From Candidatus Terrybacteria bacterium RIFCSPHIGHO2_01_FULL_48_17 (GTDB lineage Bacteria > Patescibacteriota > Minisyncoccia > Terrybacterales > 2-01-FULL-58-14), in contig MHSS01000002.1 in the NCBI GenBank assembly GCA_001822835.1, forward strand, positions 65,060 to 129,059: 64,000 bases of DNA, read 5' to 3'. Shown here one piece after another: positions 2,591-59,976 of this stretch. The position numbers were made by a program, and so were the translations under genes. The notes beneath the pieces were generated by a model. That model had not been told where the DNA came from. It made no database searches and worked only from the letters and a program-made list of their open reading frames with translations. The stretch's first letter is position 1. Each line of letters opens with the position of its first letter.

Positions 2591-3298
2591 ATGAGCGGTA
2601 TATTATACATCGTCGCCACCCCCATCGGAAATCTTGAAGATATCACCTTGCGGGCGTTGCGCGTGTTAAAAGAGGCGGATATGGTATTGGCGGAGGATAC
2701 GCGAGTCACAAAAAAATTGCTTTTTCATTATCACATTGAAAAGCCCCTTTTGTCATATCGGCAGCACTCGGGCGAGGGAGTGGTTGAAAAGATATTAAAA
2801 CTGCTTAGGGAGGGGAGGCGCCTTGCGTTGGTAACTGATGCAGGAACGCCAGGCATTGAAGATCCTGGAAACAAGCTCGTTGAAGAGGTGATTAAGCGAT
2901 TGGGTGATGGGGTGAACGTTGTTGTAACTCCCGGCGCATCTGCGCTGACAGCCCTTGCGTCGGTTGCGGGTATTTCCATGGACCGTTTTTGTTTTTTAGG
3001 GTATCCTCCGGCAAAAAAGGGGCGCAAGAGATTTTTTGAAGAAATGGCGCACGGCAGTCACGCCACGATACTTTATGAGTCACCTCACCGCATTCTTCGT
3101 ACGCTCGAAGATATAAGAGCCATCGTCGAAAACGAACGCTATATTGTCATTGGCCGCGAACTTACCAAAAAGTTTGAAACGATTTATCGCGGCAGTGTTG
3201 AGAAAATACTCGCGCAATTAGTGAGTCAAAAACCACAAGGCGAATATACGATTATTGTTGGGGCGGAAAAAGGAAAAGGCCGCAGAGCGGCCAATTAG
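2591..3298 (+). CDS. rsmI: 16S rRNA (cytidine1402-2'-O)-methyltransferase RsmI
   Basis: N-terminal ILYIVATPIGNLEDIT(L)RA motif and tetrapyrrole-methylase fold; start taken at the Met preceding GILYIV (the ORF-track start at 2567 is also possible). Confidence 0.85.
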   Translation: MSGILYIVATPIGNLEDITLRALRVLKEADMVLAEDTRVTKKLLFHYHIEKPLLSYRQHSGEGVVEKILKLLREGRRLALVTDAGTPGIEDPGNKLVEEVIKRLGDGVNVVVTPGASALTALASVAGISMDRFCFLGYPPAKKGRKRFFEEMAHGSHATILYESPHRILRTLEDIRAIVENERYIVIGRELTKKFETIYRGSVEKILAQLVSQKPQGEYTIIVGAEKGKGRRAAN

Positions 3299-3504
3299 AT
3301 AAGGTGCAATACCGCCAACCAAGAAAGAACGGTCGGTACTAAAAGCATGATAGTGATGAGCAGCGCGTATACGGAAAGCGCGACCTTAACAGCAGCCATT
3401 GTTGCAAAATCTGGTCCTTCTTTGGTTTCGCTTCGAGCGTAATAGATTGCAGCAACAAGGCCCATGATACACATTATGGTTAAGCTTATAGCAACTACCA
3501 ACAC
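3295..3504 (-). CDS. small two-helix membrane protein (hypothetical)
   Basis: 69-aa strongly hydrophobic ORF in the rsmI-metG gap; no homology recognised. Confidence 0.3.
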   Translation of the reverse strand: MLVVAISLTIMCIMGLVAAIYYARSETKEGPDFATMAAVKVALSVYALLITIMLLVPTVLSWLAVLHLI

Positions 3505-3568
3505 GAGCTTCTCCTTTGCCTGTTTTTATTAAAGATCCACCCCGTGATCTTAGTACCGTTTCATTTCT

Positions 3569-5056
3569 ATGTCAAATAAATTCTACATCACCACGGCAAT
3601 CGCATATACGAATGCGCCGCCTCATATCGGGTTTGCCCTGGAATTGGTGCAGGCGGATGTGTTGGCGCGGCTTCACGGTCTGCGCGGCGAAAAACGTTTT
3701 TTCCTTACTGGTACAGATGAGCACGGCCGAAAAAATATGCAGGCGGCACAGGGTGCCGGCAAAAAACCTGAAGAATTTGTTGATGAAATGGCGGGGCGTT
3801 TTGAAAAGCTCGCTCGCGCATTAAACGTTTCCAACGATGATTTTATAAGAACATCCGATCAAGACCGCCATTGGCCGGGCGTTGTCCAATTTTGGAAACA
3901 ACTTCAAGAATCCGGAGATCTATACAAAGCTCAATACGAAGGGCTTTATTGTTCGGGTTGCGAGGCATTCAAAAAACAAAGCGATCTTGAAGATGGCATG
4001 TGTCCTGACCACGGCAAAGTTCCCGACAGGGTGAAGGAAGAAAACTGGTTTTTCCGTCTTTCAAAATACCAAAAAGAGCTTACGCGCATTATTGGAGCGG
4101 ACGAACTTCGTATAGTGCCGGACACCCGTAAAAACGAAGTACTGTCATTTATTGCGCAAGGGCTGGAAGACGTTTCCTTTTCGCGTCCCCGAAGGGATTT
4201 GCCTTGGGGCGTTCCGGTTCCGGGCGACGACGCCCAAACTATATACGTTTGGGCCGATGCTTTAGTGAATTATCTTACCGGAATAGGGTACGGACACGGA
4301 CCTGGGGACAGGGTTCAGGGGACAGAAAGATTTGAAACATTCTGGCCGGCGGATATTCATGTTATCGGCAAAGACATCTTGCGATTCCATGCGGTAATCT
4401 GGCCGGCAATGCTGTTGTCGGCAAGATTGACGTTGCCCAAAATCCTTTTAGTGCATGGGCACATTCTTTCCGCTGGTAAAAAGATGTCAAAAACAATCGG
4501 AAACGTCGTTGACCCTTTTGCTATTGTTGAAAAATACGGGGTAGACGCAGTACGTTATTTTTTGCTAAAAGAAATTCCGACAACCGCAGACGGTGATTTT
4601 ACTGAAGACCGATTCCTTGAGGTTTATACTTCATCGCTTGCCAATAATCTTGGGAATCTGGTAGGGAGGATTGCCGCGTTGGGTAAAGATCAGGAGATAA
4701 CAGTACAGGCAGGACAGGATATTCAGGAAGTTGCAAAACGCGCGTGGGCAGAATACGAAGCGGCGTTTGCCGCCTTGCGGCTTGATGAGGCGTTGGGTGC
4801 TGTAGATAAGTTTGTCGGTTTCGGGAACGAATTCGTTGAGCGTACAAAGCCATGGGAAGGTGAGCATAATTTGCACGGTGCCTTGCCGCAGCTTGCGTGG
4901 ATGCTTGGCAATATTGCGTGGATGTTAGCACCACTTTTGCCCGAGACCGCGCGCAAAATTTTTGACCAATTAGGAATTGATCCGGGAGATACTGCGTTGT
5001 GGGAAGGAGAGAGTATTAAAATGAAAAAGGGCGCTTCGTTGTTTCCGAGGTTTTAA
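3569..5056 (+). CDS. metG: methionyl-tRNA synthetase (short form)
   Basis: Class I HIGH-like motif (PPHIGFA), KMSKT motif, and CSGC...CPDHG zinc knuckle. Confidence 0.9.
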   Translation: MSNKFYITTAIAYTNAPPHIGFALELVQADVLARLHGLRGEKRFFLTGTDEHGRKNMQAAQGAGKKPEEFVDEMAGRFEKLARALNVSNDDFIRTSDQDRHWPGVVQFWKQLQESGDLYKAQYEGLYCSGCEAFKKQSDLEDGMCPDHGKVPDRVKEENWFFRLSKYQKELTRIIGADELRIVPDTRKNEVLSFIAQGLEDVSFSRPRRDLPWGVPVPGDDAQTIYVWADALVNYLTGIGYGHGPGDRVQGTERFETFWPADIHVIGKDILRFHAVIWPAMLLSARLTLPKILLVHGHILSAGKKMSKTIGNVVDPFAIVEKYGVDAVRYFLLKEIPTTADGDFTEDRFLEVYTSSLANNLGNLVGRIAALGKDQEITVQAGQDIQEVAKRAWAEYEAAFAALRLDEALGAVDKFVGFGNEFVERTKPWEGEHNLHGALPQLAWMLGNIAWMLAPLLPETARKIFDQLGIDPGDTALWEGESIKMKKGASLFPRF

Positions 5057-5234: not shown

Positions 5235-5831
5235 ATGTTTAGGGAAAGAGAAACAAAGGAAGATTGGCGGGAGGATTTTGAGCGTGAGGTGATTCGGCGT
5301 TCGGCAGTTTCCGATGAGGAGCTGGTACGCAAGCGCGCAGCACCCTATGAGCCGCCGGCATTTGAAATTCGGGAAGCCCGTGAACGCGATGAATATATGG
5401 TGACATCACGAGAGATTTTGGATTTGTATCGTCTTCATTCGCAGATGACGGGTGATTTGTGGCCTAAAGCGGCGCCGTCGCTCCGTCCTTATTATGAAAA
5501 GCAGCTCGAACGTGTTTGGAATAAATTGCGGTGGACAATTCGACAAGAAACGCAAGAGGCAGAACAATCAGAACCCTTTTTTGATCAAGGACAACAGGAT
5601 TTCGCAAGAAAGCTCGAGGCGCTTTGGAATTCCATGGAAGAGCTCGGAGATAATGAAGACGATCAAGAGCATCGTTTCCATCAGATTGAAATTATTGGGC
5701 GAATTATTCACAGCCTGCATATTAACGGTCCACTCGCCCGATATTTGGTACGTGATATGCGCAATTTATCTGACGAACAGATTAAAGATTTTTTTGATAA
5801 ATTAGGCAACTACTACTACGCAGTTGCGTAA
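5235..5831 (+). CDS. hypothetical acidic protein
   Basis: 198-aa ORF, charged/helical composition; no recognisable domain. Confidence 0.5.
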   Translation: MFRERETKEDWREDFEREVIRRSAVSDEELVRKRAAPYEPPAFEIREARERDEYMVTSREILDLYRLHSQMTGDLWPKAAPSLRPYYEKQLERVWNKLRWTIRQETQEAEQSEPFFDQGQQDFARKLEALWNSMEELGDNEDDQEHRFHQIEIIGRIIHSLHINGPLARYLVRDMRNLSDEQIKDFFDKLGNYYYAVA

Positions 5832-5864: not shown

Positions 5865-6734
5865 ATGCCACAATTGGTAGATATCCATGGTCACATACAA
5901 TTTTCGGCATTCAAAGACGACGCCGACGAAGTGATAAAACGCGCCATAGATTCTGGCGTTTATATTATTGCGCCTTCGTCCCAGCTTTCCACTTCTAAGC
6001 GGGCGATTCTGTACGCGGAAAAATATCCGGGAAAGGTATTTGCAGCCGTAGGATTGCATCCAATTCACTTAAAACCCGCAAAGTTCGATCCGTCTGAGGG
6101 AGAAGCGCCTTCTTTTCAAACGCACGGAGATCAATTTGATGAGAAAACATGGCGGCCGTTGGCGGAGAATAAAAACGTGATTGCGTTGGGTGAGGTGGGT
6201 TTGGACTATATTGATCGGCTTGAGCTTTCAGAAAAAGACCGCGACGTGCAGGAAGAAACATTCCGCAAAGAAATTGAGTTGGCGCTTTCGGTCAATAAGC
6301 CCATTATCCAGCATTGCCGTTCAGGCATTGTCGAAGGCAAGGAACGTGATGCCCACGACGACGCGCTCCGCATCATCCGCGACTATATCCTGAACTCTGA
6401 ACCCTCTACCCTGCGTGGCGTTGCCCATTGCTACTCCGGCAATATCGGGCAAGCCAAGAAATATCTTGATTTGGGATTTCATCTTTCGTTTACCGGCCTT
6501 ATTACTTTTAACAACTTATGGGACGAGGTAATAAAAATGGCGCCTTTGGAGCGCCTGATGGTCGAAACCGATTGCCCGTATATGACACCGATACCGCATC
6601 GCGGCAAGCGCAATGAACCGATGTACGTGCGTTATATGGCAGATAAAATCGCGGAACTGAAAGGATTTTCTTTTGAAAGGGTAGCGGAGCGAACCACAAA
6701 GAATGCACAAGAGCTTTTTGGATTGCCATTGTAA
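5865..6734 (+). CDS. TatD family metal-dependent hydrolase/DNase
   Basis: N-terminal DIHGH/HxH motif and TIM-barrel TatD layout with a conserved C-terminal PYMxP-like segment. Confidence 0.85.
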   Translation: MPQLVDIHGHIQFSAFKDDADEVIKRAIDSGVYIIAPSSQLSTSKRAILYAEKYPGKVFAAVGLHPIHLKPAKFDPSEGEAPSFQTHGDQFDEKTWRPLAENKNVIALGEVGLDYIDRLELSEKDRDVQEETFRKEIELALSVNKPIIQHCRSGIVEGKERDAHDDALRIIRDYILNSEPSTLRGVAHCYSGNIGQAKKYLDLGFHLSFTGLITFNNLWDEVIKMAPLERLMVETDCPYMTPIPHRGKRNEPMYVRYMADKIAELKGFSFERVAERTTKNAQELFGLPL

Positions 6735-6769
6735 CCCTACAGAATATGTTTTAGTATAAAAAGGTAATT

Positions 6770-7231
6770 ATGATGGCCATCATAAAATTCTTTCGTTCTC
6801 TTCCAAAATCTCTGCTCGGGGGAATTCTTTTATTGTTTCTTGCGGGCGTTTTCGCAAATGCGGTTCCAACGCTTCACGCAGAACTGTTATTCCTTGATGG
6901 AGTCGTCCCCACGTTTTTATTGTGGGACCTCGTTTCTGATGGAGAGATCAACGCATGGTATCTGGATATTCCTGAAAATCCTTATTTGAAAATTATAAGT
7001 CCGGTGTATTTAGATCTTATTCTTCCAGCTATTGCTCTGCTTCTTTTTTGGGCGATAAGACCTCCTCGTACCACAAAACGTTTACTGGCCCGTCTTTTTT
7101 TAGTTTTCCTAATTCCTTTAATTTTAATACTCCTTCCAATACTGATCGGGATATTCTTATCCACCACGTTGTTTGCTCCCCCTCCTTTTTCTGATGTACC
7201 GGGCATTGACCCGACGTATTTCCAACAATGA
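6770..7231 (+). CDS. hypothetical Pro/Leu-rich membrane protein encoded inside the tatD 3'-end duplication
   Basis: 153 aa with 3-4 hydrophobic helices; AAAGG SD-like then ATG ATG; no homology recognised. Confidence 0.45.
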   Translation: MMAIIKFFRSLPKSLLGGILLLFLAGVFANAVPTLHAELLFLDGVVPTFLLWDLVSDGEINAWYLDIPENPYLKIISPVYLDLILPAIALLLFWAIRPPRTTKRLLARLFLVFLIPLILILLPILIGIFLSTTLFAPPPFSDVPGIDPTYFQQ

Positions 7232-7352
7232 ACCGATGTACGTGCGTTATATGGCAGATAAAATCGCGGAACTGAAAGGACTTTCGTTTGAAAAAGTGGC
7301 CGAGCAGACAACAGAAAATGCTATAACTCTTTTTGGGTTAAACATCGCTTGA
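7227..7352 (+). pseudogene. displaced duplicate of the tatD 3' end (encodes NEPMYVRYMADKIAELKG... about 41 aa)
   Basis: First 54 nt are identical to 6611-6664 of tatD, the rest diverged; no upstream gene body. Confidence 0.7.
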
Positions 7353-7415
7353 CGCTTATCGTGTAAGATGTAATAACGAAATCGCGCTCTTTGAAATACA
7401 AGGAAAGGAAAGTAG

Positions 7416-7748
7416 ATGACGCTTGAAGAAGCGAAGCAAATCATGACGGATTTTGTGGAAGTCCACGTGAAAACCCCGCCATTTAACGAATACATCAACG
7501 TGGTGGCACTTACCGATCGTATTACGGCGGAATTGATGTTAGCCGGAAGGGATCTTTCAACAGCTTCGGCAGAAGAAATGAAAGCGCAGCTTGAGGGCAA
7601 TGGCGAAAATCCCGATATGTGGGTGATTGCGCTTAGTGTCAAAACAGATTTGCCTCCGGAACTTTCATTGCCGAAAGAATATAAGGGTTTGCGCGTGTAT
7701 GTGTGCTGGAAGGGCGAATTTGTCTCTCATGGGAGGAGCAGAAAATGA
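7416..7748 (+). CDS. small protein, paralog 1 of a tandem triplicated family (C-terminal LP-x-EYKGLRVYVCW-GE motif)
   Basis: Strong SD (AAGGAAAGGA) upstream; alignable to the next two ORFs; stop overlaps the next start (ATGA). Confidence 0.6.
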   Translation: MTLEEAKQIMTDFVEVHVKTPPFNEYINVVALTDRITAELMLAGRDLSTASAEEMKAQLEGNGENPDMWVIALSVKTDLPPELSLPKEYKGLRVYVCWKGEFVSHGRSRK

Positions 7749-8068
7749 CCGAAGAAGAAGCGGTTGCGATCAAAACGGAATTTTCACGGAAATATATGCG
7801 AAAGGACCCGTGGAGTGATTACGTAAATACGTGTGCCCTTTCTGATTTAGCTACTGCAGAATGGATGACGGCAGATACACAAACCCAATTATCCCCCGGC
7901 GCACTGGAAGCCATACGAGTGCGTCTTGAGAAGAAGGGTTATAAGGCAGACGATTGGTGCATTACCGTCGGTCTCCGTAAACTTTTACCCAATAATTTGC
8001 GGTTGCCGAGCGCCTATAAAGGTTTGCGCGTTTATATCTGCTGGCTTGGCGAAGTTGTCGTCCACTAG
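7745..8068 (+). CDS. small protein, paralog 2 (MTEEEA..., LPSAYKGLRVYICWLGE)
   Basis: GGAGG 10 nt upstream of the ATG at 7745; clear similarity to paralog 1 along its full length. Confidence 0.6.
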   Translation: MTEEEAVAIKTEFSRKYMRKDPWSDYVNTCALSDLATAEWMTADTQTQLSPGALEAIRVRLEKKGYKADDWCITVGLRKLLPNNLRLPSAYKGLRVYICWLGEVVVH

Positions 8069-8077
8069 GAGGTCTTG

Positions 8078-8299
8078 ATGAATTATCAGCAGGCACGGCA
8101 GGCGAGGAAAGATTTTATGCGAGAGCACTTGCAGCAATTTAGCGACACGGTACACTCATGTAATCTTCTTGTGAAATGGAGCAATCCTCCGCAATGGACG
8201 ATTTACCTACGGCTCAAAAAGGAATTGCCGCAAGGCATGTACCTGCCGGAAACTTACCGAGGATTGAATGTCCGCACAGAGGTGGGAGGAAAAAAGTAA
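8078..8299 (+). CDS. small protein, paralog 3 (shorter, diverged; LPETYRGLNV)
   Basis: GGAGG 8 nt upstream; shares the C-terminal W-I...LP..Y(K/R)GL-V motif with paralogs 1 and 2. Confidence 0.5.
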   Translation: MNYQQARQARKDFMREHLQQFSDTVHSCNLLVKWSNPPQWTIYLRLKKELPQGMYLPETYRGLNVRTEVGGKK

Positions 8300-8646
8300 T
8301 GAAAAATCATGTAACTTGGAATGTGATCGAGCTTACTATTTTTGAGGCGATTAGGAGTGATCTTTCGGCAGCGCGCTCTGGGATTATGCGAGGCAATAAT
8401 TTACCCTCGCAACACCGAATTTTTACCGCATTGCTGAAAGCAGGTTATCTCACCAAAACCTTTGATCCCGCACGCTGTTGGAGGCCGATGGAAAGGCATT
8501 GCGACAACGAGATCGAGGCGTCAATTAGTAATACTTTTGAAGAATATCTTGCACAACACAAGAAGGGTGTTTTAAAGATCGGGCCAGATATCGTGCGTCG
8601 TATCTACCAAGCGCTTGCCCAAAAAGGATACGTAAGAAAAAAATAA
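8299..8646 (+). CDS. hypothetical protein (fourth gene of the coupled operon)
   Basis: TAATG stop/start overlap with paralog 3, GGAGG upstream; 115 aa, basic C-terminus; followed directly by a terminator. Confidence 0.5.
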   Translation: MKNHVTWNVIELTIFEAIRSDLSAARSGIMRGNNLPSQHRIFTALLKAGYLTKTFDPARCWRPMERHCDNEIEASISNTFEEYLAQHKKGVLKIGPDIVRRIYQALAQKGYVRKK

Positions 8647-8647
8647 T

Positions 8648-8673
8648 CCCCGCAATTAAGCGGGGTTTGTTCT
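8648..8673. terminator. bidirectional rho-independent terminator (CCCCGC-AATTAA-GCGGGG + TTTGTTCTT)
   Basis: Perfect 6-bp GC stem 2 nt after the stop at 8646, T-run following; also sits at the 3' end of the convergent gene 8673-9371. Confidence 0.6.
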
Positions 8674-9371
8674 TATCCGTCAATGCCGACATATTTTGTG
8701 TCGCGGAACAAGGATTTTTCCAAATCCCAATAACGGTTTTTTGCATCCGCTGGCTTTTGTTCAATCACCGAAACGTCGTACCAGGGATGAGGCGTGCAAG
8801 GGAATGGTACTTCTACATTTTCCACTACGAGGCATTCAATCGATATCCCCGCTTGTCGCGCAAGATAGTTTCGGTGCACGCCGTCCATCAGGATCAGACG
8901 ATCTCCGTGTTTTTCAACGATAGGGGGTAAGTAATGGCCAAGTACGCTTTCCCCGCTCTGTGTCGTTCCTATGATGAGGCAAGCAAGGAAACGGGTAAAG
9001 CCACGCATCATGCCAAAGCCCTTAAAGGTATCTCGGAAGCCCTCGACAATTGAAATATAGTTCGGCCGATACACGAATTTTTGGCCAAGCACCAGAGAGC
9101 TTGGATCGGTCATTCGCAAGTGTACTTCATGCTCGCAATAGGGCTTTTGCGCTCGATTGAAAGACAAGCTTATGCTTGAAAGCAATTTGTCGCGATAATG
9201 ATCTGGCATGACAACTACGCTTTCTACACGTGCGATATCTTTAGGGGAAACAATCCAGCCGATTTGTTCGCAACCCGGAATTTTTGAAAGGTCGATAGTG
9301 GTGCGGAAACGAAACTCATCAACGCTAATTGGGACAAAATCGGTTTGTGTAGAGGGTGTCCTTAAAGCCAT
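8673..9371 (-). CDS. ParB/Srx-like nuclease-domain protein (DGxHR motif LILMDGVHRNYLAR) with an uncharacterised N-terminal domain
   Basis: C-terminal half carries a ParB N-terminal-domain/sulfiredoxin-type DGHR motif; convergent on the small-protein operon. Confidence 0.5.
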   Translation of the reverse strand: MALRTPSTQTDFVPISVDEFRFRTTIDLSKIPGCEQIGWIVSPKDIARVESVVVMPDHYRDKLLSSISLSFNRAQKPYCEHEVHLRMTDPSSLVLGQKFVYRPNYISIVEGFRDTFKGFGMMRGFTRFLACLIIGTTQSGESVLGHYLPPIVEKHGDRLILMDGVHRNYLARQAGISIECLVVENVEVPFPCTPHPWYDVSVIEQKPADAKNRYWDLEKSLFRDTKYVGIDG

Positions 9372-9478
9372 TCCCGTCCTTTTTCTATTGTAAAATGTCT
9401 TTCTTTTTGTATCAGAGATATGCTAAAAAGGTCAACCTGTCTTTTCTTTTGCGCATGTGTTATTGTAAAATATTGTTT

Positions 9479-10054
9479 ATGCAAAACTCGCGTATTTTGG
9501 GACTTGATCTTGATGGGACGTTGGCAGATCATACGTTCGCCAAAATTGCTATTGCCCGCGAACTCGGCTACACCCTTTCCCCTCCGCAAACGGCATCGGC
9601 GATTTTAAGACACATCATGCAGCCGGAGCATTACCGGACGTTGCAAAAGCGACTCTATCACGATTTTGCCCCACATTCCCCAAAGACCGTGGGGGCCGAA
9701 GAAGCGCTTGATGAACTTCGAGTGCGTGGGTGGGATTTCCTAGTTATTTCCCGTCGAGGGGGAGAGGACTCGCAGGACTTGGCTCGGCAATGGGTTGTGC
9801 AGGAATACGCTGGCATGATTCCTTCCGAACAGGTTTTTTTCGTTGAGGAAGACGCCGCAAAAAACACCGTCGCGAAAGAACATGGCGTGTTGGGATATGT
9901 TGATGACCAACAGGAGGTTTTAAATTATCTTGCGTCCGTAAAATACCGTTTGTTGTTTGATCCCTTTGAGAATTTTCTTACTAAAACGCCGCCGCATATT
10001 TTTCTGATGCATGCATGGCGCGAATTACCCCAGCTTTTAGCCCCGTTTGAATAA
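9479..10054 (+). CDS. HAD-superfamily hydrolase
   Basis: DxDGT motif (LGLDLDGTLAD) 8 residues after the Met at 9479; the ORF-track start at 9356 overlaps the divergent gene and is unlikely. Confidence 0.7.
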   Translation: MQNSRILGLDLDGTLADHTFAKIAIARELGYTLSPPQTASAILRHIMQPEHYRTLQKRLYHDFAPHSPKTVGAEEALDELRVRGWDFLVISRRGGEDSQDLARQWVVQEYAGMIPSEQVFFVEEDAAKNTVAKEHGVLGYVDDQQEVLNYLASVKYRLLFDPFENFLTKTPPHIFLMHAWRELPQLLAPFE

Positions 10055-37863: not shown

Positions 37864-37930
37864 AAGCCCGCCTCTGGCGGGAAACTCGAAATCCTAAATC
37901 CGAAATCCAAAATAAATCCAAAACAAAAAA

Positions 37931-37966
37931 TTCGTATATTCGTATCTATTCGTATTTCGTAGTATG
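37931..37966 (+). repeat. 36-nt TTCGTA-hexamer motif, copy 1 (ttcgtatattcgtatctattcgtatttcgtagtatg)
   Basis: Near-identical to the motifs at 40255-40290 and 45986-46020; here it lies between rpmB (minus strand) and tRNA-Pro. Confidence 0.7.
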
Positions 37967-37967
37967 G

Positions 37968-38292: not shown

Positions 38293-38958
38293 ATGGATCC
38301 TATACTAGGCGGCCTTTTCACTAATGGGTTTAGTTTGGTGGTGATTCTTTTTTCTGCCATTTTGCATGAAGTCGCGCATGGCGCGATGGCATTGCGTTTG
38401 GGCGACCCTACGGCAAAATATGCAGGCCGTTTAACATTAAACCCTCTTAAACATTTAGACCCGTTCGGTTCGGTGCTTTTGCCGTTGCTGCTTATTCTTG
38501 CCCGTTCGCCCATTCTTTTTGGCTATGCGTTGCCCGTGCCGTACAACCCCTATTATTTCAAAAATCCAAAATGGGGAAGCGTATGGGTAGGGCTTGCCGG
38601 ACCCCTCACGAATATCCTTATTGCCGTTGTCTGTGCCGTGGGGTTGCGAATTCTCTTGGGCCTTGGCCTTACATTGCCGCCGCTTTTCCCGCTGCTGATA
38701 TTTTATGCGGTATTGTTAAATCTTTTTTTGGCATTGTTTAACTTAATCCCCATTCCTCCGCTTGACGGCTCAAAGTTACTCTTGGCAATATTTCCTGAAC
38801 CCCTTCGTGCATTGCAGGATTTTTTAAACCGGCTTGGAGTATTTGCCTTAGCGCTTTTGTTCCCCATACTTATTTTGGTGTTCGCCCCCATTCTTTCCCG
38901 TATTGCGATTACGGTAGCCGTATGGCTTATTGGAGGCCCGCTTCCAACCCCTCTCTAA
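38293..38958 (+). CDS. site-2 protease (peptidase M50) family membrane metalloprotease
   Basis: HEVAHG HExxH motif in the first TM helix, second motif LNL(F/I)P..PLDGS, polytopic. Confidence 0.8.
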   Translation: MDPILGGLFTNGFSLVVILFSAILHEVAHGAMALRLGDPTAKYAGRLTLNPLKHLDPFGSVLLPLLLILARSPILFGYALPVPYNPYYFKNPKWGSVWVGLAGPLTNILIAVVCAVGLRILLGLGLTLPPLFPLLIFYAVLLNLFLALFNLIPIPPLDGSKLLLAIFPEPLRALQDFLNRLGVFALALLFPILILVFAPILSRIAITVAVWLIGGPLPTPL

Positions 38959-39933: not shown

Positions 39934-40024
39934 CTTTGGCGCTCGGGTAGCCCGCCTCGCGTCTGCAGGGGACCCTTGCGTTCCCTAAGGCCGCTTCGGC
40001 GTGCCACCGCTCGCGCCAAAGCTC
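39934..40024. repeat. hairpin-rich intergenic repeat, copy B (arms gctttggcgctcggg / ccgctcgcgccaaagc; its core is shared with copy C)
   Basis: Begins at the nucleotide after the rpsG stop; about 75-nt core about 90% identical to 42463-42546. Confidence 0.7.
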
Positions 40025-40220: not shown

Positions 40221-40255
40221 TTGACGTATACTGCTTGAAGCGTTATTGTTATAAT
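40221..40255 (+). promoter_or_regulatory. candidate sigma-70-type promoter for fusA (TTGACG-N17-TATTGT, then TATAAT)
   Basis: Same TTGACG-N17-TATT.T architecture as the candidate tuf promoter at 43274. Confidence 0.35.
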
Positions 40256-40290
40256 TCGTATATTCGTATTCATTCGTACTTCGTAGTATT
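40255..40290 (+). repeat. 36-nt TTCGTA-hexamer motif, copy 2, ending 5 nt before the fusA ATG
   Basis: ttcgtatattcgtattcattcgtacttcgtagtatt; no SD between the motif and the start codon. Confidence 0.7.
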
Positions 40291-40295
40291 TATTT

Positions 40296-42419
40296 ATGCC
40301 TCGACAATATCCAATAGAACGTCTTCGCGACATTGGCATCATTGCCCACATTGACGCGGGCAAGACAACCGTAACCGAACGGGTGCTTTTCTATACCGGG
40401 ATTTCTCACAAAATCGGGGAGGTGCATGAAGGGCAGGCCGTTATGGATTGGATGGAACAGGAGCGCGAACGTGGTATTACCATAACATCCGCCGCCACCA
40501 CTTGTTTTTGGATACCGCTTGAGTTTACCGGTCTTGTAGACCAAGCAGCGCGAAAAGCAAAAGAATTTCGGTTCAATATCATCGATACCCCGGGCCACGT
40601 TGACTTTACTATTGAAGTTGAGCGGTCATTGCGCGTGCTTGACGGGGGCGTGGTTGTATTTGATGGAGTTGCGGGGGTGGAGCCGCAGTCGGAAACCGTA
40701 TGGCATCAGGCAGACCGGTATCACGTTCCTCGTATTTGTTTCATTAACAAACTTGATCGCCTCGGGGCTTCATTTGAAAAATCGCTTGCATCAATTCACG
40801 AACGCTTAACCCCCCATGCCGTAGCGTTGCAGCTCCCTATTGGTATTGAGGATTCGTTTTCCGGCGTTGTTGATCTTTTGCTTGAAAAAGCAATTCGTTT
40901 TGAAGGGGAACACGGGGAGAAAGTAGTATATGGGGATATCCCTGAAAACATGAAAGCGGAGGTGCGAAAAGCGCGTGAAGCGCTTATTGAAAAAATTGTT
41001 GAGCATGACGATACGCTCATGGAAAAATATCTAGCAGGAGAGATGCCCTCGGTTGATGAGTTGCGCGCGGTTTTGCGAAAAGCAACCATTACAGGAAAGG
41101 TGATCCCGGTACTATGTGGCTCGGCCTTAAAAAACAAGGGTGTGCAGCCCTTGCTTGATGCGGTGGTTTATTATCTTCCGTCTCCACCCGAGCTTCCACC
41201 GGTTGAGGGTACGCACCCCAAAACCGAAGCGCAGGAAACCCGTGAGCCCGATGACAATATGCCCTTTGCCGCTTTGGCTTTTAAAGTTGCAACGGATCCT
41301 TATGTTGGGCAATTAACTTTCTTCCGTGTATATTCGGGAACCTTAGGTCGAGGATCTTACGTGTTAAATACTACTTCCGGCGAGAAAGAGCGGATTGGTC
41401 GCATTGTGCGCATGCATGCAAATACCCGAGAAGAGGTTGAGGAAATGTTTGCGGGAGATATCGGCGCAATCGTGGGACTCAAAAATACTTCTACCGGAGA
41501 TACGTTGTGTGCGCCAGAAAAACCAATTGTGCTTGAGCGTATTACCATTCCAGAACCCGTAATCTCCGTACGGATTGAACCAAAATCGAAAGCGGATGAA
41601 GAAAAACTTGGGATGGCGCTTCGCCGGCTTGCAGAAGAAGATCCCACGTTTCGTGTTTCCGGTGATCAAGAAACGGGTGATACGATTATTTCTGGAATGG
41701 GGGAGCTTCATCTTGAAATTATTGTCGACAGAATGAAACGCGAATTTTCCGTTGATGCAAATGTCGGCGCGCCACAAGTTGCATACAAAGAAACCGTTTT
41801 AACAACGGCGGAAGCGGAAGGAAAATATATTCGCCAGACGGGCGGGCGCGGGCAATACGGCCATGTATGGCTTCGGGTGGAGCCGACGGAGCGAGGATCG
41901 GGTTTTGAATTTGTTGATGCAATTAGGGGAGGAGTAATTCCTAACGAATTTATCCCTGCAGTTGGCAAGGGCGTGAAGGAGGCAATGGATAAAGGAATTG
42001 TGGCCGGTTACCCGATGGTGGATGCGAAAGTAACGCTTTATGACGGCTCGTACCATGACGTTGATTCTTCAGAGGCCGCGTTTAAAATCGCCGGCTCCAT
42101 GGCATTTCAGGAAGCAGCAAAACGGGCAAAGCCGGTTATGTTGGAACCGGTAATGAGCTTATCGGTGGTGGTACCAGAACAATTTTTGGGCGATATTACG
42201 GGGGATATTTCGTCCAGACGCGGCCGCATTGAGGAGCTTGGCGAGCGCGGACAAATGAAGGAGGTAGATTCAAAAGTGCCCTTGTCTGAAATGTTTGGCT
42301 ATGCCACGCAACTTCGCTCTATGACACAGGGAAGGGGAGCGTTTACCATGGAATTTTCACATTACGAGGAGGTGCCCGGGAATATTGCGCAGGAGATTGC
42401 GGCAGGGAAGCGGAGATAA
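40296..42419 (+). CDS. fusA: elongation factor G
   Basis: [10 protein letters not shown]1 motif, DTPGHVDF, full five-domain length (707 aa). Confidence 0.95.
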
Positions 42420-42420
42420 T

Positions 42421-42590
42421 GCTCGCGATAGCGCTTTTCGCTTTCTTCGGCTTGTCGATTTCTTGGGCGCTCGGGTAACCCGCCTCACGTCTGCAGGGTA
42501 CCCTTCCGTTCCCTAAGGCCGCTTGGCGGGCCACCGCTCGCGCCCAACAATTTTTGACCTCGTAACCCGCTCAAATCACTATCGCTCGCT
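42421..42590. repeat. hairpin-rich intergenic repeat, copy C (composite: arms like copy A, core like copy B)
   Basis: Starts 1 nt after the fusA stop; left arm gctcgcgatagcgcttttcgctttc matches copy A; right arm ctcgtaacccgctcaaa...atcgctcgc matches copy A 5170-5203. Confidence 0.7.
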
Positions 42591-45945: not shown

Positions 45946-45985
45946 TGACGAGATTTTCATTTTGTCAAAGTGGCGTGAAAAAAGA

Positions 45986-46020
45986 TTCGTATATTCTTAT
46001 CGATTCGTACTTCGTAGTAT
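45986..46020 (+). repeat. 36-nt TTCGTA-hexamer motif, copy 3, ending 3 nt before the rplD ATG
   Basis: ttcgtatattcttatcgattcgtacttcgtagtat. Confidence 0.7.
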
Positions 46021-46023
46021 TTT

Positions 46024-46677
46024 ATGAAGGTTAAGGTTTATACCAAAGAAGGAAAACAGAACGGCACCGTTGAGCTGCCGGATTCTGTGTTTGGCGTTCC
46101 CATGAACAATGATTTGTTACATCAGGCAATGAGCGTTATGCTTTCGCGAAGGCGTCAGCCGCGTGCGCATACCAAAACCAGAGAAGAGGTGCGGGGCGGT
46201 GGGCGTAAGCCCTGGCGTCAAAAAGGAACTGGGTTTGCGCGGCATGGTTCGCGCCGCTCGCCCATTTGGAAGGGCGGTGGTGTAACGTTTGGCCCACGCA
46301 AAGATAAAAGATTTGCAAAACGAATTCCCGATGCCATGAAGAAAAAAGCATTGGCCGTTGCATTGTCTCAAAAAGCACGAGACGAGGAGCTTGCCGTTAT
46401 TGAAAAGATTTCCGTATCGCAGCCAAAAACAAAAGAAGCGGCATTGCTTCTTACCACGCTTCTCGCGTCAATTTTTAAAGTAGAAAAGAAAGCAAAAAAA
46501 CCATCGGTGCTTATTGCTTTTGCGAAAGAAAATCAGGGGCAGGCATTCCGTGCAGTGCGTAATATACCCTATGCCCAAGCATTCCGTCCGGAAAATCTCA
46601 ATCTTCTTGAGGTGCTGGAATATCGCTATATTTTAATCCCAAAAGAAACAGTGGATGATTTGGTGAAACGTTTTTAA
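46024..46677 (+). CDS. rplD: 50S ribosomal protein L4
   Basis: L4 family pattern (RRQPRAHTKTR...GGGRKPWRQKGTG(F)ARHGS). Confidence 0.92.
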   Translation: MKVKVYTKEGKQNGTVELPDSVFGVPMNNDLLHQAMSVMLSRRRQPRAHTKTREEVRGGGRKPWRQKGTGFARHGSRRSPIWKGGGVTFGPRKDKRFAKRIPDAMKKKALAVALSQKARDEELAVIEKISVSQPKTKEAALLLTTLLASIFKVEKKAKKPSVLIAFAKENQGQAFRAVRNIPYAQAFRPENLNLLEVLEYRYILIPKETVDDLVKRF

Positions 46678-54576: not shown

Positions 54577-55848
54577 ATGTTTGAGAAACTTTTACTTTTG
54601 TGGAAAATTTCGGAATTGCGCGCAAAGATTCTTTTTGTGCTTGGCATGCTTGCGGTGTTCCGGCTCGCCGCATCGATCCCCGTGGCCGGTGTCGACACAG
54701 AACGGCTTGCTGCATTTTTCCAGTCGAATCAGCTTTTTGGCCTCATCAATATTTTTACGGGGGGAACGCTTGAAAATTTATCAATCGCCATGCTTGGTGT
54801 GGGGCCTTATATTACCGCAACCATTATTCTGCAGTTGCTGACCATGATCTTCCCGCGTTTAAAGGAAATGTATTACGAAGAGGGCGAACAGGGGCGGCAG
54901 AAATTTAACCAAATCGGGCGTCTTTTGACCGTCCCCTTGGCGATTCTGCAAGGTTTTGGTTTTTTGCGACTTTTAGCTTCACAGGGCGTTGTAGAGTTAA
55001 CACCTATCACCACCGCAGTTAACATTGCGGTCGTAGTTGCAGGAACCATTCTTTTAATGTGGCTTGGGGAACTGATTACGGAAAAAGGTATTGGCAACGG
55101 TGTTTCGCTTATCATCTTTGCCGGTATTGTGGCATCTATCCCGCAATCACTCTTTCAGTTTTTCTCAACGTGGGATCAGACAAAACTTTTTCAAACCGTA
55201 GCATTTGCGGCAATTGCAATTATTGTTGTGGCGGGTGTGGTTTTAATTAACGAGGCACAGCGGCGCGTTCCTATTGCGTATGCCAAGCGTATCCGCGGAT
55301 TTCGTATGTACGGTGGTGTTTCAACGCACCTTCCTATACGCGTAAATTCCGCTGGCGTTATTCCCATTATTTTTGCCTTGTCCATCGTGCTTTTTCCGGG
55401 AATGATAGCCCAATTTTTCACTACGGTGGATGTTCCTCAAATTGCAAGTATCGCTAATACAATTCAAAATATTTTTTCCGTAAATAACTGGACGAGCATA
55501 TTTATCTATTTTGGTTTAGTGTTTATATTCACTTATTTTTATACCGCTGTCATTTTTGATCCCAAGGAAATTTCACAAAACATCCAGCGCTCAGGCGGAT
55601 TTATCCCAGGAATTCGGCCGGGCTCGCCCATGGTAAGCCATCTCTCGCGTATTATTAACCGAACTACTCTTGTCGGAGCTTCGTTTTTGGGAATCATTGC
55701 GGTGTTGCCACAAGTGATGCAGCAGGGCTTGAATCTGCCCGCCCTCACCATCGGGGGAACGGCGGTATTGATTGTCGTGTCGGTGGTGATTGAGACGATG
55801 AAACAAATAGAAGCGCAGCTGACAATGCGGGAATACGAAGGGTTTTAG
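54577..55848 (+). CDS. secY: preprotein translocase subunit SecY
   Basis: 10-TM SecY pattern, 423 aa, canonical position after L15. Confidence 0.93.
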   Translation: MFEKLLLLWKISELRAKILFVLGMLAVFRLAASIPVAGVDTERLAAFFQSNQLFGLINIFTGGTLENLSIAMLGVGPYITATIILQLLTMIFPRLKEMYYEEGEQGRQKFNQIGRLLTVPLAILQGFGFLRLLASQGVVELTPITTAVNIAVVVAGTILLMWLGELITEKGIGNGVSLIIFAGIVASIPQSLFQFFSTWDQTKLFQTVAFAAIAIIVVAGVVLINEAQRRVPIAYAKRIRGFRMYGGVSTHLPIRVNSAGVIPIIFALSIVLFPGMIAQFFTTVDVPQIASIANTIQNIFSVNNWTSIFIYFGLVFIFTYFYTAVIFDPKEISQNIQRSGGFIPGIRPGSPMVSHLSRIINRTTLVGASFLGIIAVLPQVMQQGLNLPALTIGGTAVLIVVSVVIETMKQIEAQLTMREYEGF

Positions 55849-55850
55849 AG

Positions 55851-56000
55851 CTCGCGCAGGGCCATTTGCGAAACGCGACAATCCCCAGCGAGGATTGTCG
55901 CTCTGTCCTCGCCGCGCTCCCCCGCATACGGTTTATATTTTATAAGGAAGCGGGGACCATGCCCGCGCGGCTGCGAAGGTTCGCAAATGTCCCTTCGCTC
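55851..56000. repeat. hairpin-rich intergenic repeat, copy E (arms cgcagggccatttgcgaa / ttcgcaaatgtccct); same subfamily as copy F
   Basis: Starts 3 nt after the secY stop; about 25-nt terminal segments identical to 59705/59814; internal perfect hairpin gcgacaatcc/ggattgtcgc. Confidence 0.7.
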
Positions 56001-56099
56001 ACCCCAAAAAAGTTGCTTGGCTGCTTCATTCATTGTTTCGTAAAGAGAAGGGTAGGATAAAAGGAGACCGGCCGTGCATTGCACGGCCGGTTTTTGTTT

Positions 56100-56997: not shown

Positions 56998-57567
56998 ATG
57001 CAGAGGCGCTACGATGCGGTATTTTTAATTGGGAGACCTGGCTGCGGCAAGGGGACGCAGTCGCGGCTATTGCAAAGACGTGCTGGTTTTGCCTTGGTGA
57101 AAACCGGTACTCTTTTTCGGGCATTGGCAAAAAAACAAACAACACTTGGCCGTAACGTCAAAAAAACGCTCAATCGAGGAAAACTCATGCCGCCATGGCT
57201 TGCGTTTTCCGTAGTGCTGGATGCATCGGGACGTGTCGATGCAAAGAAGCCGGTGTTGTTTGATGGCAGCCCCCGTACTAAAAGAGAGGCCGAATGGCTC
57301 ACTGCTGCTTTACCATGGTTTGGCAGAAATCATATTGCCGCCGTGCATCTTTTCATACGTCCGCAAGAATCATACCGCCGGCTCATCTTACGCAAAAGAC
57401 ACGACGATACTCCCGTCGTGATTCGTGCACGTCTACAAGAGTTTGACCGTAATGTAATGGCTGCCCTTCGTGTGCTTCGTGAAAAGCGGCTGCTTAAAAC
57501 GGTCAAGGGAGAACGACCCATCCAGGAAGTAGCACGCGATATTCGCAGGGTATTGCATTTGACATAA
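56998..57567 (+). CDS. adenylate kinase-like P-loop NMP kinase (paralog 1, no zinc lid)
   Basis: P-loop GRPGCGKGTQ; short LID region; tandem with the canonical adk. Confidence 0.7.
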   Translation: MQRRYDAVFLIGRPGCGKGTQSRLLQRRAGFALVKTGTLFRALAKKQTTLGRNVKKTLNRGKLMPPWLAFSVVLDASGRVDAKKPVLFDGSPRTKREAEWLTAALPWFGRNHIAAVHLFIRPQESYRRLILRKRHDDTPVVIRARLQEFDRNVMAALRVLREKRLLKTVKGERPIQEVARDIRRVLHLT

Positions 57568-57576
57568 CGTGGATTT

Positions 57577-58260
57577 ATGCAAAAAGCTGTTATCATTTTT
57601 GGTCCGCCAGGTGCGGGTAAGGGGACACAAGCAGAGATGTTTGCGGACGCGTTTGGTTTTTTGCATCTTGAAACAAGCCGCATTATTGAGGAGGCGTTGG
57701 CGACGCACGATTCAACGGAATATATTATTGCCGGAAAATCATACACCTACGGGCAGGAGAAAGAAAATTTCGACAAAGGAATTTTGGTGGAGCCGGAGGT
57801 AGTTGTACATTGGATGGTTGAGGCGATACGAAGCCATGCCCGTGCGGGAAAATCGATTGTTTTTTCTGGATCTCCCCGTACCCTCTTCGAGGCAGAGCAC
57901 CTATATCCGGTATTGCATGAATGTTTTGGCGGCAATGGCTTTTTTTGTTTTCATCTAACTGTTCCGCCAGATCTTTCAGTAAGCCGTAACATGCGGCGGC
58001 GTATTTGTGTCGCATGCCGTCTACCGCATGAGCCCAATAAAACGGTGTTGGAGTGTACGCGTTGCCGGGGAAGTTTAGTGACGCGCGGTGAACTTGATTC
58101 GCATACCTCGCTTCGCAAGCGGCTCGAAGAGTTTGAAAAACGCACCCTGCCTGGAATTTATCACTTTGAAGATCAAGGTCGTGCGGTATCGCGGCTGGAC
58201 GGTTCGCGCCCACCCGATGATGTTTTTAGGCATTTGTGTGCATTGCTTGGTTTAGTATGA
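57577..58260 (+). CDS. adk: adenylate kinase (zinc-lid type)
   Basis: GPPGAGKGTQA P-loop; LID with CVACR...CTRCRG zinc knuckle. Confidence 0.88.
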   Translation: MQKAVIIFGPPGAGKGTQAEMFADAFGFLHLETSRIIEEALATHDSTEYIIAGKSYTYGQEKENFDKGILVEPEVVVHWMVEAIRSHARAGKSIVFSGSPRTLFEAEHLYPVLHECFGGNGFFCFHLTVPPDLSVSRNMRRRICVACRLPHEPNKTVLECTRCRGSLVTRGELDSHTSLRKRLEEFEKRTLPGIYHFEDQGRAVSRLDGSRPPDDVFRHLCALLGLV

Positions 58261-59694: not shown

Positions 59695-59838
59695 CACGAG
59701 TTCACGCAGGGCCATTTGCGAAACGCGCGCAGCCCCAGCGTGTCTGCGCGCTCTGTCCTCGCCGCGCTCGCCCCGATGGCCATCGGGGCACCATGCCCGC
59801 GCGGCTGCGGAGGTTCGCAAATGTCCCTCCGCTCACTC
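59695..59838. repeat. hairpin-rich intergenic repeat, copy F (same subfamily as copy E)
   Basis: Arms cacgcagggccatttgcgaaacgcg / aggttcgcaaatgtccctccgctcac; internal hairpins gcgcag...ctgcgc and ccccgatgg/ccatcgggg. Confidence 0.7.
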
Positions 59839-59976
59839 GCGGGAGGATCATAACGCGCTCAAAGTGCTACGCGCCCGCAAGAATAATCTGTTTTTCTCAA
59901 TCTTAATGCACTAGTCGCGTTTTTTCTGGAAGACGCACGTTCCTCCCTTTGTTTTTAGAGAGGAAAAGAGAAAAGG

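Follow-up and report, generated by a model that had tools for sequence, protein, structure and literature searches.

How does the end of a housekeeping gene come to be repeated one gene further downstream? The question is raised by a locus in a 64-kb stretch of DNA (hereafter the window, the whole stretch analysed), where tatD, which encodes a TatD-family hydrolase of 289 amino acids (5865–6734, + strand), is followed by a small open reading frame (ORF) of 153 codons, ORF153, and then by a displaced copy of its own 3′ end. Both proteins, TatD and that of ORF153, belong to Candidatus Terrybacteria bacterium RIFCSPHIGHO2_01_FULL_48_17, a metagenome-assembled genome from groundwater that belongs to the candidate phyla radiation (CPR)/Patescibacteria. 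A first-pass annotation of the sequence had described a 124-nt repeat of the tatD end (6611–6734 and 7227–7352), its first 54 nt identical, and had offered two explanations for it: site-specific integration into the gene end, or recombination between gene copies.

The repeat is real, with boundaries one base off from that description. An exact direct repeat of 55 nt occupies 6611–6665 (copy 1) and 7226–7280 (copy 2), both on the + strand, and this block has two matches in the window against none in any of 100 shuffles. Copy 1 contains the tatD codons NEPMYVRYMADKIAELKG and is the region in which we place the exchange discussed below. Past the block, gapless homology runs to both stop codons (TAA at 6732–6734 and TGA at 7350–7352); the two copies are 84% identical over 114 nt, and their distal parts alone agree at 37 of 54 positions (69%). 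Read in the tatD frame, they translate into two TatD C-termini, NEPMYVRYMADKIAELKG-FSFERVAERTTKNAQELFGLPL and -LSFEKVAEQTTENAITLFGLNIA, each closed by its stop, whose distal 20 codons show seven synonymous and six non-synonymous differences; the diverged remainder is, as the first-pass annotation had it, an in-frame, paralogous C-terminal peptide. On its left side the repeat ends abruptly: the sequences 5′ of 6611 and 7226 show no similarity to each other, and no third copy of the tatD end is present within the window. Both 55-nt copies carry a window-specific GAT (Asp) codon that none of the relatives has at this position. The blocks were therefore copied from one another recently and do not represent a donor and a recipient version of independent origin.

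We delimit the insert as 615 bp on the + strand, 6666–7280 or, equivalently, 6611–7225. It comprises an attached tatD 3′ end of what we call A type (6666–6734, FSFERVAERTTKNAQELFGLPL and the TAA stop), which came with the insert, a 35-nt spacer (6735–6769) with an AAGG Shine-Dalgarno-like motif ahead of ORF153 and no terminator, ORF153 itself (6770–7231, + strand), whose TGA stop lies inside repeat copy 2, and one 55-nt block. Behind it stand the displaced native, or N-type, tatD 3′ end (7281–7352, + strand, LSFEKVAEQTTENAITLFGLNIA and the TGA stop), a probable relic, and the original intergenic region 3′ of tatD (7353–7415). A check of base composition, proposed in the first-pass annotation, revealed a guanine-plus-cytosine (GC) fraction of 0.41–0.42 in the insert, 0.36 at third codon positions (GC3), against about 0.47–0.50 in the flanking genes. 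In tatD, a native body is joined to 23 final codons from incoming DNA. The tatD product matches the Pfam family TatD_DNase (PF01026; E = 1.4e-70) with residues 5–286 across the entire profile (positions 1–253 of 253), so that the last helix is part of the TatD fold. The displaced fragment alone has a weak TatD match in the JGI gene calls.

ORF153 is the only plausible gene between the two copies, in agreement with the first-pass annotation. It represents the best coding frame of six, with a per-codon log-likelihood ratio of 0.092 that lies at the low edge of confident genes (0.169 ± 0.042), the values for the other five frames all being negative (at most −0.08). The predicted protein is rich in Leu (22%), Ile (11%) and Pro (10.5%) and has about three hydrophobic segments. 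No homologues were detected among 5.8 billion proteins, and a HMMER search of 1.84 billion representatives returned only ORF153 itself and P0126, a protein of 1521 amino acids (E = 1e-7, aa 40–83), in which one unit of a seven-fold C-terminal repeat is matched by the central 44 residues of ORF153. Judging from the sequence pattern of this repeat, we consider it FG-GAP/VCBS-like and P0126 a surface protein. Neither Pfam, PADLOC nor PHROG gave a match to ORF153, and our best guess is that this orphan cargo gene encodes a small surface-exposed membrane protein. ORF153 appears to be promoterless and is co-oriented with tatD. Its expression by read-through from tatD is plausible since the terminator scan found no terminator between them, nor any from tatD up to the bidirectional one at 8648–8665.

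The same arrangement was present in 15 contigs fetched from ENA, JGI and NCBI assemblies that derive from different samples; their identity to the window is 99.96% or higher, and none differs from it within 6611–7352. The window population is essentially clonal. An assembly artefact can be ruled out, because independent assemblers and samples gave the window-type allele in these 15 contigs and a second occupied allele, described below, in seven.

Empty and occupied tatD sites in related lineages

Searches of metagenome contigs and of a large protein collection placed the locus among four sister lineages whose TatD proteins are 83–87% identical to one another. The comparison of related tatD loci that the first-pass annotation had recommended yielded both empty and occupied alleles. 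In two lineages, represented by contigs L074/L156/L157 and L155/L159, the site is empty: the 615-bp stretch and ORF153 are absent, and some 60 nt behind tatD these lineages have one or two genes of the small-protein family that in the window comes after copy 2. Over the distal segment, copy 2 is identical to the L074 end at 46 of 54 positions (85%), copy 1 at 35 of 54. The displaced copy also equals native ends in length and in the TTGAC context of the stop, and the sequence 3′ of it aligns with the sequence 3′ of tatD in the empty-site relatives; the intergenic region 7353–7415 aligns with the post-tatD sequence of L074 and L155 and with what follows the displaced copy in the second occupied lineage, L154. 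The A-type end, in turn, agrees with the attached end of L154 at 46 of 54 positions (85%) and with native-type ends at only 65–72%. Since the ends and flanks of the empty sites match copy 2, this copy is original and 6666–7280 inserted; by this comparison, copy 2 and the DNA downstream of it are the original locus, and the 615 bp are an insert with a replacement gene end. The idea that the second copy marks the original gene end and that the DNA between the repeats was inserted, first put forward in the first-pass annotation, is thereby borne out.

In the second occupied lineage, L154, whose TatD is 83% identical to that of the window, tatD is followed by 21 nt, an ORF of 255 codons (ORF255), 19 nt and a displaced tatD end, KGLPFEKVAEQTTENARTLFNLAFS with its stop, behind which come small-protein, ParB-CE-like and NT5C-like genes. 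This allele was recovered in the seven contigs mentioned above (ENA, JGI and Logan assemblies). The C-terminal part of ORF255, likewise an orphan membrane protein, is weakly CarboxypepD_reg-like, and homology between ORF255 and ORF153 was not supported (BLASTP E = 0.28; no blastn match). The displaced copy of L154 begins at AAGGGT, exactly where the perfect block of the window ends (...CTGAAAGG), so that both alleles share an ...AAAGG boundary. No tatD homology could be detected further upstream of the L154 displaced copy, and the presence of a degenerate core copy there is unsupported, local alignments scoring below the shuffle means. With two alleles compared, the left repeat boundaries, that is, the right junctions of the inserts, lie about 55 nt apart, and the duplicated length is 124 nt in the window versus about 75 nt in L154.

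Neighbour joining on the distal 66 nt united window copy 1 with L154 copy 1 at 95% bootstrap, while within-genome pairs received 0–3% and the displaced ends fell with the empty-site ends. The N-terminal parts of TatD pair differently, the window with L074 (87%) and L154 with L155 (87%). Each of these pairs consists of one occupied and one empty lineage, and the occupied lineages are therefore not sisters. A-type ends occur in both occupied lineages and in neither of the empty-site ones. Among the 158 tatD loci fetched at that point, about 140 of them from other, non-Terrybacteria Patescibacteria, a second TatD C-terminal fragment was found only in the window population and in L154; it is also absent from one more distant Terrybacteria lineage (L070/L076).

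The displaced fragments bear on the age of the event. Those of the window and L154 differ by nine synonymous and three non-synonymous codons, and the L154 fragment differs from the functional L074 end by eight and two, respectively. A rough binomial estimate, which assumes that about 28% of random changes are synonymous, gives p of about 0.001 for such a synonymous bias. The fragments have thus mostly diverged as coding sequence and are not relics that have drifted since before the lineages split, which argues that the displacement is recent relative to lineage divergence or that the relics were refreshed by recombination. The first-pass annotation had named relatives with the same arrangement, both copies evolving as coding sequence, as the sign of an ancient internal duplication rather than an insertion. 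L154 does have a similar layout, and both ends look coding-like; insertion is not refuted by this, because there are empty sites and the occupied lineages do not form a sister pair.

Homologous exchange and the origin of the insert

Homologous exchange is frequent at this locus. The tatD genes of the four lineages form a patchwork in which tracts of 100% identity alternate with tracts of 60–70%. Contig L166 (ENA ERZ4903072 k141_3786037, 2830–4871) is a clean recombinant whose crossover falls in tatD. It first matches the empty L155 backbone at 100%, as far as roughly nucleotide 160 of tatD. From there on the match, again at 100%, is with L154; it covers the A-type end and extends into the cargo gene, and the 3′ portion of this gene follows a third allele, which ends at 134 amino acids. 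That L166 is a chimera of the k = 141 assembly is unlikely, given that the parents share no identical stretch of 141 nt at the switch. L166 shows the cassette being transferred to a different backbone by homologous recombination, for which tatD serves as the arm. Sites that separate both occupied from both empty lineages start at 6605, 6608 and 6617 in window copy 1, right where the repeat begins; at the sites of the 55-nt block that are informative for donor versus native sequence, L074 has many private changes.

The reading that we prefer, with a probability of roughly one half, is that homology-anchored recombination between co-occurring lineages of Terrybacteria displaced the gene end (C-terminal displacement), with no dedicated integrase. 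A segment from a related lineage, bearing an A-type tatD 3′ end, a short spacer and the lineage-specific ORF153, would have entered the chromosome. On the left, the junction would have formed through homologous exchange within the conserved 3′ region of tatD, at the place marked by the 55-nt perfect block; on the right, the segment would have been joined illegitimately to tatD at position 6611. The incoming end would have completed tatD, whose last helix is needed, and the resident end (7281–7352), its spacer and the operon behind it would have been pushed 615 bp downstream, the resident end persisting as an untranslated relic. Candidate routes are a Campbell-type insertion-duplication by a circularised fragment, homology-facilitated illegitimate recombination, template switching, or a linear fragment followed by gene conversion; the two occupied alleles may go back to one event with later cargo turnover or to two events. 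The 55-nt repeats would make the insert deletable by RecA, and deletion would restore an N-type tatD. Several marks of C-terminal displacement are found here: a mosaic, scar-less left junction, a non-homologous right junction that differs between alleles, and an incoming 3′ end with a downstream gene behind which the resident 3′ end lies orphaned. Homologous recombination is abundant in the population, and the second explanation of the first-pass annotation, recombination between gene copies, is closer to the evidence than its first.

A number of points weigh against this reading. Two insertions fall within the same 60 nt of one gene in four lineages, with none at about 140 other Patescibacteria loci; such a recurrence would be a coincidence if the joining were random and illegitimate, and suggests a hotspot or a site-directed mechanism. 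A linear-fragment event alone does not give two identical 55-nt blocks, for which a circle, a template switch or conversion is needed. The donor, an A-type tatD with intact ORF153 and no relic, was not found, and the search for a recombinase covered only 64 kb of the genome. Finally, contig L014 (ENA ERZ4903137 k141_2439812) has as its base 1 the window position 6611, the first base of the 55-nt repeat, and this end could correspond to a circular or tandem junction. An end of this kind is expected in a k = 141 de Bruijn assembly when the block has a second left neighbour, for example a circular or tandem junction of the cassette or a strain variant; by our own estimate, the chance of any contig end landing on the boundary base is about 1%.

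Second in order, and unlikely in our view, comes an att-flanked mini-element without an integrase, resembling a cis-mobilizable element (CIME) or a cassette mobilised in trans, in the tatD 3′ end. The recombinase would be encoded elsewhere or have been lost, the phage-type attachment site (attP) of a small circle would include a tatD-like end, and the 55-nt block would be the att core. The anatomy of left and right attachment sites (attL/attR) speaks for it: identical-core direct repeats flank the insert, and a replacement gene end with many synonymous differences is supplied, as in e14/icd/icdC (PMC13626634). So do the use of the same target in two non-sister lineages with related A-type ends, the start of the L154 displaced copy where the perfect block of the window ends (...AAAGG), the break of L014 exactly at 6611, and the fact that CIMEs, by definition, keep attL and attR without an integrase (PMC5704250). 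On the other side, the insert holds only ORF153, with no recombinase gene in it or beside it, and none of the 50 ORFs scanned in the 64 kb, the only part of the genome searched, encodes a recombinase or transposase; they are housekeeping genes, RecJ included. This absence had already been noted in the first-pass annotation. For the attL/attR integration that it had offered as one explanation there is no evidence; the right junction of L154 lies about 55 nt away, and L154 lacks an identical core. The local genes had no PHROG or PADLOC matches, the 55-nt core and ORF153 were not found in IMG/VR viral contigs, and the region matched nothing in INPHARED phages or PLSDB plasmids, so that these searches returned neither a donor, an autonomous relative nor an attP form. 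Gene calls and Pfam marks at 166 fetched loci likewise revealed no autonomous element at the same site. Moreover, the cassettes of the window and L154 share nothing outside the tatD-like end, hence no conserved arm sites, and their left repeat boundaries differ. The spread seen in L166 was by ordinary homologous recombination.

An old duplication of the tatD end in situ is doubtful, and less probable than a mini-element. The empty sites would then be later deletions and the 55-nt identity a recent gene conversion. The copies do cluster by position rather than by genome, as if older than the lineage splits; L154, a related lineage, has the same layout; and deletion between direct repeats would regenerate an intact N-type tatD. 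This explanation is opposed by the coding-like divergence of the displaced fragments reported above (9 synonymous/3 non-synonymous; 8/2; p about 0.001), by the unrelated cargo genes, by the unequal duplicated lengths (124 vs about 75 nt), by the insert GC and GC3 below those of the flanks, and by the lack of a second fragment at the other Patescibacteria tatD loci fetched, L070/L076 among them.

Comparably doubtful is the idea that the last ~25 codons of tatD are the specific target of a cassette family in Terrybacteria, each cassette being promoterless and bearing one gene. Every cassette would supply a replacement gene end of its own, the conserved A-type end acting as a recognition or recombination module, and the cargo would be fast-turnover membrane or surface proteins. 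The cassettes would be moved by a trans-acting recombinase or a dedicated RecA-dependent route and would be distinct from integrons and integrase-bearing islands. The association of A-type ends with cargo, the ...AAAGG boundary and the contig break at 6611 are compatible with such a family.

Very improbable is a maintained switch that toggles two tatD C-termini and the cargo through the 55-nt repeats, with both ends under selection: both ends look constrained as coding, perfect 55-nt repeats would permit reversible deletion and one sample has a possible assembly-graph branch at 6611, but all 15 contigs are occupied, no hybrid (excised) TatD occurs in the 90% cluster, deletion is not readily reversible without a circle, and the C-termini differ only conservatively over 23 residues, with no apparent functional reason for a choice between them.

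Other classes of element were rejected. A transposon or miniature inverted-repeat transposable element does not fit, as inverted repeats are missing from the insert ends and what is duplicated is a gene end of 124 nt. For an integron cassette, an attC-like single-stranded DNA fold is missing at both ends and on both strands (z-scores −0.04 to +1.2), and there is no IntI. The mismatches between the copies comprise every type of change (for example T>C, G>A and C>A) and are not adenine-specific, and no reverse transcriptase occurs in the scanned ORFs, which excludes a diversity-generating retroelement. A larger prophage or island that reaches as far as the ParB-like gene is excluded by the synteny of 7416–10054 in empty-site relatives and by the lack of a third tatD end in the 64 kb; PHROG and PADLOC gave no matches for it either. 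Nor is this a polymorphic toxin locus, since the swap concerns the last 23 residues of the TatD fold and is conservative, and ORF153 has no PADLOC or Pfam match.

Neighbouring genes and other elements in the window

Upstream, the order rsmI(-like)-metG-ORF198-tatD is common to the window and its relatives, a housekeeping context. ORF198 (5235–5831), between metG and tatD, is a clade-specific gene of 198 codons that is present in all four sister lineages (191–208 amino acids) and has only a sub-threshold GemA-like match; the more distant relative L070 has an unrelated membrane protein of 216 amino acids in its place.

Downstream, a resident operon of small genes (7416–8646, + strand) lies outside the insert, and its homologues directly follow tatD in the empty-site relatives. 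On the grounds of synteny with these relatives, the entire stretch of genes at 7416–9371 is excluded from the insert. It consists of three genes for small paralogous proteins (7416–7748, 7745–8068 and 8078–8299) and, as the last gene, an ORF of 115 codons (8299–8646), all on the + strand. The proteins of this family measure 64–110 amino acids, share an N-terminal M.YEQARQ and a C-terminal LP..YKGLRV motif, and have no Pfam, PADLOC or PHROG match. After tatD, three copies occur in the window, one in L074 (3029–3223), one in L154 (2555–2800) and one or two in L155 (3795–4280). The ‘ParB-like’ gene that follows on the opposite strand (8673–9371, − strand) yields no Pfam match of its own at E ≤ 0.01, and sub-threshold matches to the ParB-CE domain come from its homologues in L154 (E = 1.7e-4) and L070 (E = 1.1e-3). 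The whole interval from tatD to NT5C is hypervariable, L074, for instance, lacking the ParB-CE-like gene.

Elsewhere in the window, four further features were observed. A GC-rich intergenic element of about 150 nt, not in Rfam, occurs after a secY-like gene and again about 3.8 kb downstream (55845–56002 and 59695–59840); its copies are 83–94% identical and share a multi-stem fold (z = −2.4 and −3.9) whose inner hairpins are kept by different sequences. A 38-nt element made of ATTCGTA heptads is found three times (37930–37967, 40254–40291 and 45985–46022). Two of its copies lie just upstream of + strand operon starts, those of the elongation factor G (EF-G) gene at 40296 and of a ribosomal-protein cluster at 46024, and the remaining one precedes the gene at 38293 by about 325 nt; the element may be a shared promoter or operator. 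A GC-rich repeat of 63 nt, 92% identical between its copies, follows the S7 gene (39934–39996) and the EF-G gene (42462–42524) and does not fold significantly (z about +0.6 to +1.0). Finally, two adenylate-kinase-like genes stand next to each other (56998–57567 and 57577–58260) in the secY-map cluster.

Significance and comparison with known systems

Gene-end displacement and 3′-end replacement are already known; what is new is the instance, a housekeeping gene of a CPR bacterium with a one-gene insert and no recombinase. The locus offers a well-resolved small example of how new genes may reach CPR/Patescibacteria, whose genomes are tiny and poor in mobile elements. A single set of samples yielded occupied, empty and recombinant alleles, with more than one allele present in some individual samples, and the locus shows homologous exchange at a sub-gene scale among co-occurring Terrybacteria lineages. 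The essential-looking tatD would stay intact because the incoming DNA carries a spare gene end. The interval from tatD to NT5C emerges as a hotspot of orphan genes whose products, membrane proteins, plausibly determine how these organisms interact at the cell surface. For annotation, the 38-amino-acid ‘TatD-like’ gene reported by some pipelines is probably the relic, and tatD itself probably a chimera. Should a homing cassette family exist after all, CPR bacteria would possess a gene-delivery device of a new kind.

Integron cassettes resemble the insert in being promoterless single ORFs, co-directional behind an expressed gene, with cargo that varies between strains, but the tatD locus has no attC hairpin, IntI, attI or array. 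In Campbell-type insertion-duplication, which is used for mutagenesis in naturally transformable bacteria, a circle carrying an internal gene fragment integrates into the gene. The topology is the same as here, a homologous fragment duplicated as direct repeats around heterologous DNA. Laboratory constructs usually truncate both copies, whereas here the incoming fragment reaches the stop and leaves the gene intact, and there is no known natural source for a 615-bp circle.

CIMEs are cis-mobilizable elements derived from decayed integrative and conjugative elements (ICEs) or integrative and mobilizable elements (IMEs) (PMC5704250). As in a CIME, the insert is short, contains no integrase, sits at the end of a conserved gene and has an att-like direct repeat on either side; unlike in a CIME, no related autonomous ICE, IME or prophage was found at the tatD site, no helper is known, and the second allele lacks an identical core. 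One published IME does target tatD, in Streptococcus, at the 5′ end of the gene. Prophage e14 (and phage 21) integrates into the 3′ end of icd in E. coli and leaves the icdC relic (PMC13626634, citing Hill et al. 1989). Here too the target is a housekeeping gene, the replacement 3′ end differs mostly at synonymous sites, the original end remains on the far side as a C-terminal pseudogene, and deletion between the repeats would recreate a functional chimeric gene. In contrast, e14 measures about 15 kb, encodes its own integrase and excisionase and is excised site-specifically, whereas the tatD insert has 615 bp, one gene and no recombinase.

The closest parallel to the preferred reading, homology-anchored displacement, is the C-terminal displacement seen at rhs, cdiA and type VI secretion system (T6SS) effector loci, which has been proposed to proceed via homology-facilitated illegitimate recombination (PMC5361080, citing Jackson 2009 and Kirchberger 2017), a process that has been defined experimentally (PMC3240628). 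As at those loci, an incoming 3′ end with the gene behind it would have replaced the resident 3′ end next to a conserved upstream anchor and without an integrase; the resident end lies orphaned immediately downstream and keeps a stretch of homology to the main gene; and the resulting arrangement spreads among strains by ordinary homologous recombination, as the arrays do there. The differences are equally clear: tatD is no polymorphic toxin gene but encodes a housekeeping hydrolase, the exchange is conservative and confined to the final 23 residues, the gene brought in codes for an orphan membrane protein and is not a demonstrable immunity gene, and a single displaced end takes the place of an array.

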